NCBI GenBank assembly: GCA_039715015.1
Contig: JBDLIE010000038.1
Location: 1-24,518, forward strand
Reading direction: 5' to 3'
Source: Thermodesulfobacteriota bacterium
GTDB taxonomy: Bacteria; Desulfobacterota; Desulfobulbia; Desulfobulbales; SURF-16
DNA length: 24,518 nt
Position 1 is the stretch's first letter; each line of letters opens with the position of its first letter. Positions 5,153 to 24,184 of this stretch are shown one piece after another. A program made the position numbers and the translations under genes. The notes under the pieces are model-generated. The model was given only the letters and a program-made list of their open reading frames with translations. It was not told where the DNA came from and did not search any database.

Positions 5153-7093
5153 TTGAATAATTTTTACAAAAATATTTCCATGTGGCTGATCATCGGCCTG
5201 GCCATGGTACTCCTTTTTCAGATGTTTAATAATCCCCAGCAAGGTCAAGAGACATTAAGTTACTCCGACTTTCTGGCCCGGGTAGAATCTGGCTCTATCA
5301 GCCAGGTTACCGTCCAGGGTGACGAGATTACCGGCAACACGGGTGGCAAGAACTTTAAGACCATCTCCCCCATTACCGACCTTGAACTCTGGTCCATACT
5401 TCGCAAATCCGGTGTTGAGGTGAGCGTCAAACAGGTGGAGAAGCCACCTTGGTATGTCACCATTCTAGCCAACTGGTTTCCCATGCTGCTTTTGATCGGT
5501 GTTTGGATCTTCTTTATGCGCCAGATGCAGATGGGCGGCGGCAAGGCCATGAGTTTTGGCAAGAGCCGCCACCGTCTCCAAGAGGGTGAGGACACCCATG
5601 TCACCTTTAAAGATGTGGCAGGTATTGAGGAGGCCAAGGAAGAGCTCGCCGAGATAATTGACTTTCTGAGAGAACCTCAGAAATTCACCAAATTGGGAGC
5701 CCGTATTCCCACCGGCGTCCTGCTTGCAGGCCCTCCAGGTACTGGTAAGACCTTGCTTGCCAGGGCCATTGCCGGTGAGGCCCAGGTCCCCTTCTTTTCC
5801 ATCTCTGGTTCTGATTTTGTTGAGATGTTTGTCGGTGTCGGTGCCTCCCGTGTCCGTGACCTTTTCAATCAAGGCAAGAAAAATGCCCCCTGTATTATCT
5901 TCATCGATGAAATCGATGCCGTGGGGCGTCATCGCGGCGCCGGCTTAGGTGGTGGCCACGATGAGAGGGAGCAAACCTTGAACCAACTCCTCGTTGAGAT
6001 GGATGGCTTTGAGGAAAATGAAGGTGTAATCATCGTTGCGGCCACCAACCGCCCAGATGTTCTCGACCCGGCTCTGCTCCGTCCCGGCCGTTTTGACCGT
6101 CAGGTCATGGTCCCCATCCCTGATGTGGGCGGCAGGGAAATGATCCTCAAGGTCCATGCCAAGAAACTTCCCTTGGCGGCCGATGTTGACTGGAAGGTCA
6201 TTGCCCGTGGCACACCTGGTTTTTCCGGTGCAGACCTGGAAAATCTCGTGAACGAGGCTGCCCTACTAGCGGCCCGGACCAATGAAAAAGCCGTTACCAT
6301 GGCCGATATGGAAGAGGCCAAGGACAAGGTGATGATGGGCGCTGAACGTAAGAGCATGATCATTACCGTCAAAGAAAAGGAGATCACGGCCTATCATGAG
6401 GCCGGCCATGCCCTTATTGCCAGACTCTTGCCCGGCACAGACCCTGTCCACAAGGTGACGATTATCCCCAGAGGACGTGCTCTTGGTCTTACCATGCAGC
6501 TCCCCACTGAGGAAAAATACAGCCATTCCAAGAGCTTTCTGCTCAACACTATCTGTATTCTCCTCGGCGGCCGGGTTGCTGAAGAACTTATTTTTGAAGA
6601 AACAACCACCGGCTCTGGAAATGACATTGAACGTGCAACTGCCCTGGCCAGAAAGATGGTCTGCGAGTGGGGAATGAGCAAAGAAATGGGTCCTCTCTCC
6701 TTTGGCAAGAAGGAAGAGCAAATCTTTCTCGGCCGTGAGATTTCCCAACATCGCGATTACAGCGAATCAACAGCAATCCAGATTGACACCGAAGTCAAGA
6801 ATATGATTCTTGAGGCCAACGACAAGGTGTTTGCCCTGCTGAGGGAGCATATGTCCGCCTTAAAAGAGATGTCGGAACTTCTTCTTGAGAGAGAGACCAT
6901 CACCTCGGAGGACATCAACGTCATTCTCGAAAAACATGGCATAGCCTTTGAGAAACCGGCTGCAGCAAAGGACGAACCCAAGGTTTCACCTTCTCCTGAA
7001 GTTGCTGCTTCAGCCCCTCAAAATGAAACGGAAAGTGCCAGTGCTCCTGCTGAAGAGGAAGTGGCAGAACCGCCTGCCCAAGACAACGAGTAG
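5153..7093 (+). CDS. ftsH: ATP-dependent zinc metalloprotease FtsH
   Basis: Two N-terminal TM segments, Walker A GPPGTGKT, Walker [37 protein letters not shown] zinc motif. Start moved to TTG 5153 because AAGGAG (5141-5146) lies 6 nt upstream. Confidence 0.98.
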
Positions 7094-7105
7094 ACGAGAG
7101 GCGGC

Positions 7106-7945
7106 GTGAAAATCATCACCCCGCACCATACCCTGGATCTCAATGCCAGGGTTCATGTCATGGGTATTCTTAATGTCACCCCTGACTCCTTTTCAGACGG
7201 TGGTATCCTCGACACTGAGGATAAACTGTTTACCCAGGTTTCCACCATGGTGGAGGCCGGGGTGGACATTCTCGACATCGGTGGCGAATCTACCCGGCCT
7301 GGAGCTGCCCCTGTTTCACTGCAGGAAGAGATAGACCGGGTCATTCCTGCCATTGACAAAATCCGCCGCAATTTTTCCACCCCCATTTCAGTTGACACCA
7401 ACAAGGCTGAGGTCGCCCGTCTAGCCCTTGACACCGGTGCTGATATTATTAACGACATCAGTGCGTTACGTTTTGACCCTGCCATGCTGCCCCTGGCTGT
7501 GGAAAAAGATGTTCCGGTCATTATCATGCACATGCAAGGCAGGCCCGGCACCATGCAGCAAAATCCCTATTACGATAATGTGGTGGAGGATATTAAGGCT
7601 GAGCTTTGCCAGTGGCTGGAGAACGCCGAAGCACAGGGCCTCAGTCGCAAAAAAATTATCATAGATCCAGGTATTGGCTTTGGCAAAACCCTGGAGCATA
7701 ATCTTTCTATCTTAAAGCATATTTCTTCCTTCACCGAGCTCGGCTGCCCCGTGCTTATTGGCCACTCCCGTAAACGTTTTATCGGTGTTATCCTTGATGA
7801 AAAGGAGGCTGACAAACGTGATGTGGGCACGGCAGTCATTTCCGCTCTCTGTGCCCGTTCTGGCGCCGCCCTTCTTCGTGTTCACGATGTTGTAAAGACT
7901 ATCCAGGCAGTTAAACTTGCCCAAGCTATAGAATCCGCTGTATAA
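7106..7945 (+). CDS. folP: Dihydropteroate synthase
   Basis: MGILNVTPDSFSDGG, DIGGESTRPG, DPGIGFGK, SRKRF and RVHDV motifs; GTG start with GAGG upstream; canonical ftsH-folP order. Confidence 0.98.
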   Translation: MKIITPHHTLDLNARVHVMGILNVTPDSFSDGGILDTEDKLFTQVSTMVEAGVDILDIGGESTRPGAAPVSLQEEIDRVIPAIDKIRRNFSTPISVDTNKAEVARLALDTGADIINDISALRFDPAMLPLAVEKDVPVIIMHMQGRPGTMQQNPYYDNVVEDIKAELCQWLENAEAQGLSRKKIIIDPGIGFGKTLEHNLSILKHISSFTELGCPVLIGHSRKRFIGVILDEKEADKRDVGTAVISALCARSGAALLRVHDVVKTIQAVKLAQAIESAV

Positions 7946-8034
7946 TTTTTATTTGAAAGATTCAGACTGGTGGATACCTTCTCGCCACTAGAAAATATTT
8001 TCAGATAATCTTTGGACGGCCGGCTGCTCCTTCA

Positions 8035-9978
8035 TTGAAAGATAAAATAAAGCGATATCAGCGCTATAACCGTAGCAGGAAGATTCGGGCGATTAATTTC
8101 AACTCCCAGTCTTCCACCCTGTTTTTTAAGGTTATTCCCTTCTTGCTCCACTGCAATTATCCTGACCTGCCCGGTTTCATTGATGATGAAGATTGCCAAT
8201 TTGGGATCTACCGCTTTCTGCCTGATAAATTTGTCGATGCCAATCTTTTCCGCCGCTACTTCCCTGAATCGACAGCGCTCAGCGTCAAGACCCCTTCACC
8301 ATACGGCCAGAGCCCTCATATCCACTCGCTAAAAACCATTGGCAGCATTGGCACCGTGGCCCAAGCCGCAAAATCAGATTGTGATTACTGGGTTTCTGTC
8401 CGCTATGAAGAGCTAGGGAAAAAAGGCCTGGATCTCCTTGATGAAAAATGCCGGCTCATTGCCAAGTGGGCCGAAAAATACGGTCTTGAGGTCTACTTCT
8501 TCCTGATGGACATAGATCAGACCAGGATGAATAAGTTTGATTCAAGCGCTGAAGAGGAGTCTGCGGGCTCAGCGCTTAAACTCCTTCTCAAAGATGAGCT
8601 TTTCCGTACCCATATTCTGGTGGCGGGCAAGATGCTCCTCTGGTGGCTTATCCCCCCCGGTCTCAGCCATGATGAGTATCGTAACCGTGTCCAACAATTT
8701 ATAGATAGCGGTGTCAATATGGAAAACTATATTGACCTTGGTTACCTTTCTGACATCCCTAAATCTGAAATTTTCGGGGCCTGCCTCTGGCAGCTCAACA
8801 AGGCCTTAGACAGTCCCTTTAAGTCGGTAATCAAATTCGCCTATCTCGAACTTCTCCTTCTTAACAAGGCCGAGACTTTACCTCTTTTTTCCTCAAAAAT
8901 TTTATGCATGGTTACCTTCCCTGAACTCTTACCCGATGGAGAGCAACGCCTCGACATAACAGCCATCGACCCCTATCTTCTTCTTGCCAAGGATATTGTC
9001 GCTTTTTATCAAAAATCATCCGCCGTCCACAAGGATGACAATCTCATACGCGAATGCCTTTTCTTAAAAACCCTGGAAGGCATGAAGTCTCAGAAGAGGA
9101 GTAAGCATCTCAAGCAGACCATGGATCTTATGAAAAAATGGGATCTGCTTCCGCAATTAATGTCGAAATTTCTCCATATCAGGAACTGGCGTTATAATGA
9201 TCTGCTGGCCTCCGGAAGTGATGTCCACAACTACCTGCTTTCCACCTACAAGCGACTTCGTCTTCTTTTTTCCACTGTTGAAAACGGCGCCGAACATACC
9301 ATTACCCAGCGCGACCTCTCTATTCTGGGTCGCAAACTCTTTACTTTCTACGAAAATAAACCGCATAAGATTGAATACATCAAAAGCCTGTCTCGGGATA
9401 TTATGTGCCAGAAGGCAATCACCTTCCACATCACCAGATATAAAGGTCAGGTGTATTTCTATGCCTTTCAGGGTGAACAGTCCCCAGACTCGATAAAGGA
9501 CAATATTGAACTGCAGATCAGAAGGGGAACAAACCTCGTAACCCTTGTTGCCTGGCTTGCCGTTAACGGTATTCTTCAGAAGACAACGGAAATTTACCTG
9601 ACCAAGAACTTCCTGCAGCTTAACCTGATCGAAATTCGAGCAGTGGCAGAAAAAATCTTTGCAAACTTCCCACTTATTACTTTTTCGAAGATACCAACAA
9701 AAGAACTTCTGAAGAAAGAGTCCACCATTCGGGCGCTTGCGGTGATTAATTTCCACAAACTGCCGGTGCGGGGAGAAAAAGAGCTTCACTCGTCAATTAT
9801 TAGCCTTAACAATTATGGTGAACATTTTATTCACCACTATACCACCCTGACCCAGCTGAAAAATGAATTCAGACAGTTGTTGACCAAACATTACGTCAGC
9901 CGCTGGAACGACAATCTGGAGATCTTTATCCCCCAGCAACCAGAGCAATATTACATTGAAGAGATGATCAAAAATTAA
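8035..9978 (+). CDS. cyaA: Class I adenylate cyclase (CyaA family), 647 aa
   Basis: GSIGTVAQAAKSDCDYWV (Pol-beta-type GS...DxD), LLKDELFRT, GACLWQLNKALDSPFKSVIK, IDPY, LIRECLFLK and DLSILGRKLF match class I AC blocks as I recall them from E. coli CyaA. The TTG start puts DxD at 115/117, close to E. coli D114/D116. Confidence 0.88.
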   Translation: MKDKIKRYQRYNRSRKIRAINFNSQSSTLFFKVIPFLLHCNYPDLPGFIDDEDCQFGIYRFLPDKFVDANLFRRYFPESTALSVKTPSPYGQSPHIHSLKTIGSIGTVAQAAKSDCDYWVSVRYEELGKKGLDLLDEKCRLIAKWAEKYGLEVYFFLMDIDQTRMNKFDSSAEEESAGSALKLLLKDELFRTHILVAGKMLLWWLIPPGLSHDEYRNRVQQFIDSGVNMENYIDLGYLSDIPKSEIFGACLWQLNKALDSPFKSVIKFAYLELLLLNKAETLPLFSSKILCMVTFPELLPDGEQRLDITAIDPYLLLAKDIVAFYQKSSAVHKDDNLIRECLFLKTLEGMKSQKRSKHLKQTMDLMKKWDLLPQLMSKFLHIRNWRYNDLLASGSDVHNYLLSTYKRLRLLFSTVENGAEHTITQRDLSILGRKLFTFYENKPHKIEYIKSLSRDIMCQKAITFHITRYKGQVYFYAFQGEQSPDSIKDNIELQIRRGTNLVTLVAWLAVNGILQKTTEIYLTKNFLQLNLIEIRAVAEKIFANFPLITFSKIPTKELLKKESTIRALAVINFHKLPVRGEKELHSSIISLNNYGEHFIHHYTTLTQLKNEFRQLLTKHYVSRWNDNLEIFIPQQPEQYYIEEMIKN

Positions 9979-9984
9979 AACGCC

Positions 9985-10230
9985 ATGAAAACAGTAACCC
10001 TCTATCATTCCGTCTTGTGACCCCGCTGTCATCTGGCAGGCCGTGCGCTTGCTCAACTTCAAGAAGAATTTCCAGAGTTGGAAATCAATCAGGTTGATGT
10101 AACCATGCATCCGAAGAAAGCCTGGCAGGCAGGAATACGGATGGTCCCCTGCCTCGTAGCTGGGGACAAAAAGATGAGCGGCATCATGCTCAGCAAGAAA
10201 AAGATTCGTTCCTTTATCAAGCAGCTTTAA
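9985..10230 (+). CDS. Putative selenoprotein, thioredoxin/glutaredoxin-like, UxxC motif (81 aa; in-frame TGA at 10018-10020 read as Sec)
   Basis: Manual translation: MKTVTLYHSVL(U)PRCHLAGRALAQLQEEFPELEINQVDVTMHPKKAWQAGIRMVPCLVAGDKKMSGIMLSKKKIRSFIKQL*. It shows beta1 + (U)PRC + helix, beta2 EINQVDV and a cis-Pro-type GIRMVP loop, and it fills the gap between cyaA and the convergent hydrolase. Confidence 0.82.
10035..10053 (+). promoter_or_regulatory. Candidate bacterial SECIS stem-loop downstream of the in-frame UGA
   Basis: GGCAGGC-CGTGC-GCTTGCT forms a 7-bp stem (two G-U pairs) with a GU-containing loop 22-26 nt after the UGA. Confidence 0.5.
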
Positions 10231-10242
10231 AACTCAATGGTT

Positions 10243-11004
10243 TCAGGGTCTGAGCTCACGAACCAACCACTTGCTGATCCGCTCCTCCACTCCTGCCACC
10301 TCGCCAAACATCATGGTGCCGTGGATGGACTCTTGATCAAAAATAACAAGCTGCGCCCCGCGGCCTTGCAGGCGCTCATAAATGGTTTTGGCTCCGCGCT
10401 CAGCCTCCTCCTCACTTGTTAAAAGAAGAAGCGGCAGGCCCGGCCAGTGTTCAAGATGGCTCATGGTATCAATGCCCAGATAATCACGCCCCGGTGTCAT
10501 AAGCACCATAGCGGCTATCTCCGGCTTGGCGGCAGCCACCATGTGCATGGCAACACTGCAACCAACACTGGCCCCCACCACACCAATCTTTTGATGGCCA
10601 TGGGCCCGCAACCAGGCCAGGGCGGCCAGACTATCCTGATACATCTCGTTAAAAAATGCTGGGTCGCGATCATCAACCCGAAAAGACTGGTCAACACCGG
10701 CAGCATTGGCACGGCTCTCGCCATGGCCACGCAGATCCACGGCCAACGAGCTAATGCCCTGCCGCTTTAATTCCACCATCAGGGGCTGCCAGCTCTCCTT
10801 TTGCCTTTTAAACATGTGAAGAAGAAGTACAGCAGGCATTGAGGAGTGACCACCATCCACCTTCTCATACCCCCCCACCAATGGGAAGCCGTCTGAGGCA
10901 TGTAAAGTGATCCTTTCACTGCCCCACAAACTCGCCGGCATCATGTTAAAGCACACAGCCAAGGCAGCGGCAGCCAACCAACTCATTTTCTTAACGTGTC
11001 TCAT
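10243..11004 (-). CDS. Secreted/periplasmic alpha/beta-fold hydrolase
   Basis: Signal-peptide-like N-terminus (MRHVKKMSWLAAAALAVCF...), VLLLH, DLRGHGES, GASVG nucleophile elbow, C-terminal HGT. Start moved to ATG 11004, with GGAG 5 nt upstream. Confidence 0.85.
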   Translation of the reverse strand: MRHVKKMSWLAAAALAVCFNMMPASLWGSERITLHASDGFPLVGGYEKVDGGHSSMPAVLLLHMFKRQKESWQPLMVELKRQGISSLAVDLRGHGESRANAAGVDQSFRVDDRDPAFFNEMYQDSLAALAWLRAHGHQKIGVVGASVGCSVAMHMVAAAKPEIAAMVLMTPGRDYLGIDTMSHLEHWPGLPLLLLTSEEEAERGAKTIYERLQGRGAQLVIFDQESIHGTMMFGEVAGVEERISKWLVRELRP

Positions 11005-11099
11005 CAATTCTCCAAAATCCGTGGCAATTCTTGTCTTTCCCAAAAGACATGATTATCATCTTTTGGCAAGATTCTTTTCCCGAAAACAGAGGTCTCTTT

Positions 11100-12062
11100 A
11101 TGGACATTAAATATGGTTTACCCGCTAGCAATAAAGGCGAGTGCAACGATGAGCGTTCGACAACCTGTGAATACCGCTCCCAACTCACTGAGATCGTTGA
11201 TGACTTAGTTCAAAGCTGCTTTTCCAGCGACTGCTTTGAGCATATCAACGCCGACCCTCTGCCTTCAAGGAAAAAAGCCATTGACCTTTTGGAACGTTGT
11301 CAGGACATTCTTTTCCCCGGTTATTTCCGCCATCAGGACATCGACAAGGTCAACCTCGAATATCGAATGGGGCTTGAAGTCTCAGCACTCTATGACCGTT
11401 TGGCCGCGGAAATAACCTATGCCATCCGCCACGAGTGCATACGCCACAACAAAAGCTGCCAGAATTGTGACCAACAAGGAAAACAAAAGGCCTTTGCTTT
11501 CCTGCAATCCCTCGGCAATATCAGAAAAATACTCGCCACTGATGTCAAAGCGGCCTATGAAGGCGATCCAGCCACCAGCAGCTATGATGAGATCATCTTC
11601 TGCTATCCGGGCATCCTGGCTATCACCATCTACCGTATCGCCCACCGACTTTGTGAGCTTGAAATTCCCATTTTGCCTCGTATCATGACAGAGTACGCCC
11701 ATTCCGTGACAGGTATAGATATCCATCCAGGTGCAGAAATAGGCGAATCATTCTTCATTGATCATGGGACCGGTGTGGTCATCGGTCAGACCTGTCTAAT
11801 CGGGACCCAGGTAAAAATTTATCAAGGTGTTACCCTGGGCGCTCTCTCCTTTAAACGGGATGAATCAGGCAATCTTGACCGCCAGAGCAAACGCCACCCC
11901 ACCCTAGAAAATAATGTTACCGTTTATTCCGGCACCACCATCCTCGGTGGTGACACCATCATTGGGGAAAACTCCGTGGTGGGCGGCAATGTGTGGTTGA
12001 CAAAATCCGTACCCGCCAATTCCAAGGTCCTTCTCAACCCGCCGGAGCTTATCATTAAATAG
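11100..12062 (+). CDS. cysE: Serine O-acetyltransferase, long N-terminal (EpsC-like) form
   Basis: ILFPGYF, AAYEGDPA, CYPG, YRIAH, TGIDIHPGA, FFIDHGTGVVIG, IYQGVTLGA and KRHPT motifs. Start ATG 11100 with AGAGG upstream; this avoids overlap with the divergent hydrolase. Confidence 0.92.
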   Translation: MDIKYGLPASNKGECNDERSTTCEYRSQLTEIVDDLVQSCFSSDCFEHINADPLPSRKKAIDLLERCQDILFPGYFRHQDIDKVNLEYRMGLEVSALYDRLAAEITYAIRHECIRHNKSCQNCDQQGKQKAFAFLQSLGNIRKILATDVKAAYEGDPATSSYDEIIFCYPGILAITIYRIAHRLCELEIPILPRIMTEYAHSVTGIDIHPGAEIGESFFIDHGTGVVIGQTCLIGTQVKIYQGVTLGALSFKRDESGNLDRQSKRHPTLENNVTVYSGTTILGGDTIIGENSVVGGNVWLTKSVPANSKVLLNPPELIIK

Positions 12063-20591: not shown

Positions 20592-21027
20592 GGGGTTATC
20601 TCCAGTGTACGACCATTACATCGCCATTAAGCCCAAAATACGCTTTTTGGCTGTCATAAGCAGGTCAATTATATGAAAAAGAAGGAGGTGAAAAAAGAAG
20701 GGAAAGCTGCCTGGAAAGGCTAATACAATGAAGGGAAGGTTAGAAAAGGGGCAACTGGTTCAACTAAAAATCCTGCCTCTTTGAAAAAACTCTACAAAAC
20801 ACACCATAATCTTCATATATAATCTGGATTAATCCAGGGATTTCCCATGAGTACTCCGTTTTTAAGGGGAGACTCTCTCTTTAGCACTTCGTTCTTTCGT
20901 AAACAAGACAGCTTACATAACACTGCCTACATTTAAAGCGAGATGATCACATCTCATATAAAATCAGCCCAATTTCAATGAGCAGTATAAAAAATAATCA
21001 ATGGCTCAAGCCATGGAGCCATAAAAA

Positions 21028-21205
21028 TCCCCCGCCTTGGCCGTCTCAACAGCTACATCGAACCTAACATAGTTAGGTGGGAGAAGCTCATAATACCCTC
21101 GAGTGATTTCGCAAGCAAGCGAACATTCTCTAATGTATCAGGGGAGTCGCCCTTGATGTAATGAGTTGGCTCGAAAATGCTGTCAAAAACGAGCCAGGCA
21201 GGGGA
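21028..21205 (-). ncRNA. ssrS: 6S RNA
   Basis: About 178 nt directly downstream of zapA (conserved position). The ends pair (TCCCCTGCCTGGC...GCCAAGGCGGGGGA), and the internal TCGAGCCAAC and CCCACCT...AGGTTCGA blocks are typical of 6S RNA. Confidence 0.88.
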
Positions 21206-21230
21206 AAAGGGATAACAAGTAGTCGTCTTC

Positions 21231-23345: not shown

Positions 23346-24134
23346 TCAGGAGGCTTGGGGAGCCTCGGGAACGTCATCGCCGTGGCACTCCATACAGTTA
23401 AACTGGCCGGTTATGCCATGCTCGGAAGCAGCACTAAAATCGTTGGTGGGCTCATATTTTCCATCGTGCCAGTCATTCAAAAGCTCAACAAGACGATAGG
23501 CAGTACTGGCTGCTACCCGCGCACAGCGGTCCTTACGCTCAGCACTCTTGAGTGGTAAACCAGCCTTCTTCATCCATTTGCCGACTGATATATGACAGAG
23601 TGGGGATTGGCTGGTGGTCTTGGCAATTTTTGAAGGCTTGACTCTCGCCTTTTTAGGCGTAAAAACAGGCATCTCAGCCTCAGAGTACCACTGCATAATA
23701 TCAGCTGAAATATGATGGGCATCAGGAGATCCTGCAATACGCGGCCCAATAATCACATTAGCGACAATATTAGCACCAGCAGGGGAGCCACAAACAGTAC
23801 CCCAGCCCACTTGACCACCCTCAAGAAAAGTAAAGGAATCACTTGGGAAAGACGTATAGGGCTCACCAACCTTCTCTCGCAACTGGCTGAACACACTGTT
23901 AATAACAGCGCCACCACAGAAAACGCGGTACCATTCGTTATAACAGATTTCTGCAGTCTTGGCGGGATCAAGCTTGACATAGGGCCAAGGCCATTTTTCC
24001 GTCTTGCCTGACTTTGCCTGGGCTGGATCGAGAGCCCCACCCAAATGAGCCAGCGCAGCAGTTGCAGCTAAGGCTCCACCACCAATAATTACAGATCTTC
24101 TTGACACATCTTTACAACAGCCCTTCTCTTCCAT
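23346..24134 (-). CDS. Split-Soret cytochrome c-like protein (C-GCAxxG-C-C family) with twin-arginine signal
   Basis: VSRRSVIIGGG...AQA Tat-like signal; WPYVKLDP, GEPY, GGQVGWGTVCGS, SPLCHISVGKW, ERKDRCAR and a C-terminal CMECH. Start ATG 24134 (GGAGG 7 nt upstream). Confidence 0.8.
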   Translation of the reverse strand: MEEKGCCKDVSRRSVIIGGGALAATAALAHLGGALDPAQAKSGKTEKWPWPYVKLDPAKTAEICYNEWYRVFCGGAVINSVFSQLREKVGEPYTSFPSDSFTFLEGGQVGWGTVCGSPAGANIVANVIIGPRIAGSPDAHHISADIMQWYSEAEMPVFTPKKARVKPSKIAKTTSQSPLCHISVGKWMKKAGLPLKSAERKDRCARVAASTAYRLVELLNDWHDGKYEPTNDFSAASEHGITGQFNCMECHGDDVPEAPQAS

Positions 24135-24184
24135 TTTCATGCCTCCCTAACCTCTATCTTCCTAGGGGTGATAAAACAGCTACC

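Follow-up and report, generated by a model that had tools for sequence, protein, structure and literature searches.

The locus and its reading frame

The window, by which we mean the whole stretch of 24,518 nucleotides analysed here (contig JBDLIE010000038.1 of a Thermodesulfobacteriota bacterium), carries behind ftsH and folP a class I adenylate cyclase gene and, directly downstream of it, a short reading frame with an in-frame TGA (Table 1). A preliminary description made from the letters of the DNA had placed an ATG at 9985, followed by 11 codons, a TGA at 10018-10020 and a frame open to a TAA at 10228-10230, giving 81 residues with the motif U12-P13-R14-C15; these coordinates are correct, and so is its remark that the frame is missing from the ORF track, since a plain table-11 listing of ORFs of at least 80 aa omits this 81-aa frame. 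The first ATG past the TGA is that of Met41, with a TTG at Leu32 earlier still. No signal peptide is evident in the 81-aa protein, in which a predicted strand begins at residue 3.

Table 1. Coordinates of the features at the redoxin locus, in positions of the window
Feature	Position	Strand	Description
Class I adenylate cyclase gene	8035..9978	+	647 aa; PF12633 and PF01295 above cut-off; ends 6 nt before the redoxin start
Selenoprotein CDS (redoxin)	9985..10230	+	81 aa, predicted thioredoxin fold, ~9.2 kDa, calculated pI 9.7
TGA codon, read as Sec (U12)	10018..10020	+	Opens the U-P-R-C motif; reading based on homolog codons and Sec machinery
Cys15	10027..10029	+	Predicted resolving cysteine; invariant in 75/75
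SECIS-type hairpin	10035..10053	+	7-bp stem 10035-10041/10047-10053; 5-nt loop 10042-10046, G second; 21 nt past the UGA
Pro55	10147..10149	+	At the thioredoxin cis-proline position; invariant in 75/75; aligns with Pro of MJ0307 and thioredoxins

A promoter and terminator scan of positions 7000-11200 returned 8 and 8 sites, respectively, against 4.6 and 4.2 expected, none of them decisive, and none of the sequencing runs listed as containing the stretch is an RNA run. The cyclase is short: its best model, NF006981, has 638 positions and is matched below cut-off, and the other class I models have 800-950 positions. Elsewhere, the 264-aa product of the frame at 23346-24140 on the reverse strand has a twin-arginine-like N-terminus and a C-terminal CxxCH, as well as a C-GCAxxG-C-C domain (PF09719, just above cut-off). 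Rfam at gathering scores matched nothing in the window, including the 640-nt gap between two ORFs at 20592-21230, which is probably flanked by RNase-Y-like and ZapA-like genes. A gap between such genes often houses 6S RNA.

Homologs and alternation of selenocysteine with cysteine

With C in place of U, the protein matched six thioredoxin-clan Pfam models, all below cut-off (best E 7e-5). The same query found five Cys-type database proteins with 40-67% identity across 93-96% of the query; the closest named homolog is labelled Desulfurivibrionaceae and others Desulfobulbaceae and Thiovibrio, labels that point to the Desulfobulbales as the order of this genome. Within the family the protein itself matched 34 of the 40 genomes, and across the order, with 201 genomes, a 17-row profile matched 124; a hand count from the match table gives 51 of these 124 with a TGA inside the match. 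Three genomes have two redoxin pieces on different contigs, and the remaining matches are one per genome. In a phylum-wide sample 3 of 301 genomes were matched, all of them inside the order, and none of 290 outside it among the genomes searched. More distant CPRC and CPKC relatives occur among database representatives. As judged from these searches, the redoxin subfamily is restricted to the order and is without a curated model.

Loci were fetched for part of the matches; 99 contained the motif, yielding 75 distinct loci, and a further one, truncated at a contig end, was left out. The expectation that the TGA occupies the position of the first cysteine of the motif was borne out in this set, where the codon is TGA in 29 loci, TGC or TGT in 46 and nothing else. 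Nor is the TGA peculiar to one strain, being common to the 51 genomes just mentioned across several families, and the 29 loci that carry it span four family codes (f1, f13, f14 and f15) with frames intact. Two hallmarks of the fold that had been proposed fared differently: the proline loop stands insofar as Pro55 is, like Pro13, Arg14 and Cys15, identical in all 75 distinct loci, the cis form itself being predicted, and Cys56 has to be given up, as a cysteine is found there in just 7. The position of Met41 also varies among the 75.

Compared with the window gene, six homologs gave a pS of 0.47-0.69 and a pN of 0.13-0.26; in every one of the six pairs pN is the lower value in each of three segments, one ahead of the TGA, one immediately behind it and one past Met41. 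The single sequencing run containing the stretch shows no alternative letter, at a word depth of 70; the assembly may itself derive from this run, which is then no independent confirmation. A tree built from 204 columns is weak, with at least 10 Sec/Cys changes and one well-supported independent Sec/Cys pair. Selenocysteine is optional in this protein: Cys forms are maintained where a lineage has kept the Sec machinery.

All of 121 database proteins read CPRC; U may have been stored as C, however, so that these entries do not exclude Sec forms on record. Among the best 150 database representatives, 48 begin downstream of the motif. We rejected a count of such N-truncated entries as a measure of Sec forms, because, on inspection by eye, some of them correspond to Cys-type loci (P0174, P0223, P0244) and others to TGA loci (P0195, P0215).

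A hairpin that varies together with the TGA

Downstream of the TGA the window can form a hairpin of -8.6 to -9.1 kcal/mol. The bacterial SECIS model given in the accessible portion of PMC13188914 has a loop of 3-9 nt with a G in its first two positions, a stem of 4-16 bp, a spacer of 16-37 nt and an energy of -7.5 kcal/mol or less, and the window hairpin agrees with it on loop, G, stem, spacer and energy. Its stability against shuffles is not unusual (z -0.05 to +0.86), and the simple hairpin test that it passes is passed by 104 of 3000 random TGA triplets as well. A similar hairpin, with a spacer of 20 nt, is found in selD of the same genome.

Covariation was scored over five loop-proximal pairs in a register fixed from the window. 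Among the TGA carriers (n=29) the core is 89% paired with 28 two-sided changes, a level reached in 0 of 500 shuffles, and registers slid along the alignment give 18-43%; among the Cys carriers (n=45 distinct) it is 51.6% paired, which 197 of 500 shuffles attain, that is, the level of chance. By a yes/no criterion the hairpin is present in 24 of 29 TGA loci, the other 5 being without it, versus 5 of 46 Cys loci, a contrast that ignores kinship (one supported independent pair in the weak tree). In an ungapped-stem test, -7.5 kcal/mol is reached by 8 of the 29 TGA carriers. Taken together, these alignments argue for a putative SECIS hairpin whose covariation is specific to TGA carriers.

Selenocysteine machinery of the genome

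That the genome should possess the machinery for selenocysteine was confirmed: selA (618 bits), selB (373) and selD (361) each score above their curated cut-offs, and tRNA-Sec was located on contig C84 by both ARAGORN and Rfam. The selD gene has an in-frame TGA of its own. Throughout the order selA is nearly universal (191 of 201 genomes), and co-occurrence with the Sec trait can therefore not discriminate; for the same reason the Cys-type redoxins are mostly in Sec-competent cells. One TGA carrier (G181) gave no selA match, but has selB and tRNA-Sec.

When the genome was scanned crudely for further UxxC frames accompanied by a hairpin, 14 candidates emerged, and the organism hence appears to use selenocysteine widely. 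Several of the 14, judged by eye, presumably correspond to selenoproteins of peroxiredoxin, DsbA and arsenate-reductase type. Frames with an in-frame TGA in UxxC and a SECIS-like hairpin lie on contigs C1 (+ 42379), C2 (+ 59092), C18 (+ 32067; reverse strand 1136) and C67 (reverse strand 992), and these, again judged by eye, presumably include peroxiredoxin-like, arsenate-reductase-like, DsbA-like, disulfide-isomerase-like and AhpC/TSA selenoproteins.

The preliminary description had named beforehand three findings that would count against a selenoprotein omitted by annotation, namely a genome devoid of Sec machinery, homologs with neither Cys nor TGA at this codon, and a TGA that is a sequencing error or confined to one strain. 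Each was checked and none applies. We regard the frame as almost certainly a true selenoprotein gene, and as a real, overlooked member of a UxxC thioredoxin-fold selenoprotein subfamily, in which sequence comparison suggests that Sec would be inserted at the UGA.

Predicted fold and a proposed role

An AlphaFold2 model (pLDDT 93.8) depicts a minimal thioredoxin of four strands and three helices. It has the four-stranded sheet, the flanking helices, the CxxC at the start of helix 1 and the conserved proline by which a thioredoxin fold is predicted here, and in a wide VIA-align search it aligned to thioredoxins with Z up to 13.8 and an rmsd of 1.5 A over 80 residues. The nearest solved relatives by sequence profile include MJ0307 (1fo5, E 8.8e-12) and 1nho. 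No curated model of NCBIfam or Pfam reaches its cut-off, the best NCBIfam model being TIGR00411, the MJ0307 family (E 1.1e-8; 35 bits against a cut-off of 92.75), and in a language-model atlas the Thermodesulfobacteriota clusters are named thioredoxin family or hypothetical. The redoxin is basic, with a median pI of 9.4 and 65 of 75 proteins above pI 8.

A shared thioredoxin fold, here a modelled one, does not by itself establish reductase activity. We nevertheless find it probable that the protein acts as an accessory disulfide reductase and has no dedicated role at the cyclase; the predicted activity is that of a cytoplasmic protein-disulfide reductase. Going by the established bacterial Sec pathway, the hairpin, 21 nt past the UGA, would be bound by SelB, which would deliver Sec-tRNA. 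Thioredoxin chemistry suggests that the Sec12 selenolate would then attack a substrate disulfide and that Cys15 would resolve the mixed bond, leaving a Sec12-Cys15 selenenyl-sulfide, which the NADPH thioredoxin reductase of the genome would likely recycle. The genome has a trxA-trxB operon, and gshB and a ferredoxin-thioredoxin reductase were not found in it (it is 99.99% complete), which is why TrxB is proposed as the recycler. The redoxin would likely serve to repair oxidised enzymes of the cytoplasm or to tune their redox state, as an accessory to ordinary TrxA, and its place behind the adenylate cyclase would reflect a conserved gene order and likely co-transcription and not an obligatory partnership.

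Two further genes of the genome belong to this context. A second TrxB-like gene (contig C30, 12686-13555; locus L124, 1471-2394, reverse strand) scores 227 bits against a cut-off of 343, has an atypical CVDC motif and is a candidate for an alternative reductant. A second small thioredoxin-like gene, with CGHC, lies at 2594-2791 on the forward strand of contig C16 and is 35% identical to the selenoprotein.

Gene neighbourhood and alternative explanations

The cyclase was found by a single-protein query in 93 of the 201 genomes of the order, and in 0 of 82 genomes of two large families. Of the 62 genomes with both genes, 57 have the redoxin directly downstream at a distance of up to 250 nt (41 of them at up to 60 nt), and 61 have it within 4 kb; in several loci the cyclase stop and redoxin start codons touch or overlap, and the two genes are likely co-transcribed. 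This arrangement, along with five strongly conserved cyclase cysteines (C54, C116, C139, C250 and C341), speaks for a dedicated redox switch, in which the selenoredoxin would reduce a regulatory disulfide of the upstream class I adenylate cyclase and so tie cAMP to redox. We consider this unlikely. The cysteines are equally kept in loci without a redoxin (14-16 of 16), and each gene is often found without the other (a cyclase match is missing from 62 of 124 redoxin genomes, and a redoxin match from 31 of 93 cyclase genomes), so that a functional link is at most a lead; the Fisher p for co-occurrence is 0.19, with genomes that are not independent. No co-evolving cyclase cysteines were found, and a complex prediction with a natural Cys-type redoxin and its own cyclase (the G003 pair, with their own alignments) scored 0.00 twice, a result that speaks neither for nor against a link. 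A fusion of the two was searched for and none was found among the longer proteins searched, which is weak evidence; one candidate, a 679-codon frame upstream in G161, proved to be another reading frame over the cyclase gene.

Both genes moreover sit within a longer conserved block from which either can drop out. No diverged redoxin was seen downstream of the cyclase in 16 loci from redoxin-less genomes, and in three loci the redoxin is directly behind ftsH-folP with the cyclase absent. The simplest reading is an ancestral block carB-ftsH-folP-cyclase-redoxin-(cysE)-PFOR, of which either cyclase or redoxin can be lost. The broader proposal, that an order-wide U-P-R-C selenoredoxin, co-expressed with the cyclase as its redox switch, places cAMP under selenium-dependent control by the oxygen/sulfur redox state, is likewise doubtful.

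Two other observations were made at the cyclase loci. One cyclase match with an in-frame TGA (G042, contig C12, 12872-14182) covers residues 2-433 only and is probably a broken or shortened gene, and in G040 the cyclase and a Cys-type redoxin are separated by an ORF of 336 codons (L108, 2446-3453) that runs in the same direction.

Less likely still is that the selenoredoxin would reactivate carbon enzymes (PFOR, acetate-CoA ligase or acetylation regulators) after oxygen exposure. A PFOR gene lies behind the redoxin in the window and in several other loci, and PFOR is a thioredoxin target in Desulfovibrio according to the accessible parts of PMC5627308 and 10.1101/2024.09.27.615472. In addition, a second context dominates among 20 chosen loci from genomes that gave no cyclase match: 11 have the redoxin in divergent orientation to a deacetylase-domain gene, and within 4 kb a CBS gene is present in 12 and an acetate-CoA-ligase-like gene in 13. 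However, PFOR is also behind the cyclase in 7 of 16 loci without a redoxin and is hence part of the block, the Desulfovibrio activator described in those parts is ordinary Trx1 and our genome has an ordinary Trx, the two neighbourhoods have no gene in common, and a divergent orientation is no operon. Loci L062-L080 (e.g. L073, 4310-8232), from families that lack the cyclase, where the redoxin diverges from a conserved cluster of histone-deacetylase-domain, CBS-domain and acetate-CoA-ligase-like genes, sometimes also have an acetyl-CoA hydrolase/transferase gene; the cluster suggests an acetylation-control locus.

We give a slim chance to a thioredoxin-fold selenoprotein with a role other than reductase, such as metal or metalloid binding, sulfur or selenium carriage, or oxidase activity. 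An invariant Arg14 and a basic surface, unlike that of the acidic TrxA, would fit such a role, and a changed function has been proposed for the MJ0307-related SaoT in the accessible text of 10.1101/2022.07.06.499078. The redoxin retains, on the other hand, a plain CxxC/UxxC and the invariant proline and is without a third conserved Cys, and metal or sulfur-transfer genes are not among its recurrent neighbours at the loci inspected. Finally, a pseudogene whose TGA is a nonsense mutation or a sequencing error is very unlikely indeed, even though 46 of 75 homologs carry Cys and TGC/TGT needs one base change to become TGA, given the TGA shared at the same codon of 29 distinct loci in four family codes with intact frames, the invariant residues, the purifying selection (pN below pS) on both sides of the TGA, the hairpin covariation confined to TGA carriers and the uniform letter in the reads.

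Significance and comparison with known systems

The accessible portion of PMC13188914 names UxxC thioredoxin-fold proteins as the commonest bacterial selenoprotein class and tabulates 119 selenoprotein families, most with a thioredoxin-like fold; its family table, in that portion, has no row for TIGR00411 or a UPRC motif, and its broad Trx/Grx rows could absorb the redoxin. BSepDB covers Desulfobulbia genomes, as its available description states (PMC13326102), and UPRC is absent from the supplements of PMC12013277 that were available. Our literature search returned no match for UPRC with selenocysteine and no relevant one for Desulfobulbales selenoproteins, although Haft and Tolstoy 2025 may bear on the matter. 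A distinct new subfamily, though of the commonest selenoprotein kind, is therefore probable, not certain.

The subfamily is without a curated model, yet common within one order (found in 124 of 201 genomes, and with UGA in 51 of them), and annotations of these genomes consequently miss or truncate a redox protein that bears an active site. It further offers a clean natural test set for Sec/Cys exchange, as members of a single genus may have either the Sec or the Cys form of the ortholog with the Sec machinery retained, and the SECIS hairpin disappears along with the UGA. Should the cyclase link be functional, cAMP synthesis of class I would receive an input from redox state, for which the literature search found no precedent.

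Compared with known systems, the redoxin stands apart from TrxA in that it is without the first strand-helix and without the Trp that precedes the motif; the TrxA of the genome is a separate gene, and the models for TrxA (TIGR01068, 18.6/96.8 bits) and glutaredoxin 3 (TIGR02181, 17.3/90 bits) are both matched below cut-off. It differs likewise from the Pfam thioredoxin-clan models, whose cut-offs it does not attain (21.6/23.5 and 18/22.9 bits), and NF047660 was not among its NCBIfam matches. With the UXX-star proteins (NF041212, NF047338) and the NrdH-redoxins (TIGR02194) it shares a glutaredoxin-sized fold and weak matches (E 8e-5 to 3e-3) that are far below cut-off at 22.7/66, 17.5/97 and 18.8/85.75 bits, respectively; unlike in UXX-star, however, its Sec is at the N-terminal active-site position, and ribonucleotide reductase is not encoded recurrently next to it at the loci inspected. 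SaoT (NF040730) is similarly related to MJ0307 and, in the accessible text of 10.1101/2022.07.06.499078, has about 85 aa and includes a UPTC form, but the redoxin is without a third Cys in the motif and without an adjoining sao operon, and NF040730 neither matched it nor was found in any of 5 genomes searched. Closer are MJ0307 and MTH807 (TIGR00411; 1fo5 and 1nho), which share with it a length of about 80-85 aa, a CPxC on the first helix and a proline before the third strand, whereas the redoxin is bacterial, has U/C-P-R-C in place of C-P-H-C and carries Sec in 29 of 75 loci. In this last respect it resembles the known UxxC thioredoxin-fold selenoproteins, with which it has in common both the UxxC motif and a predicted SECIS directly past the UGA.
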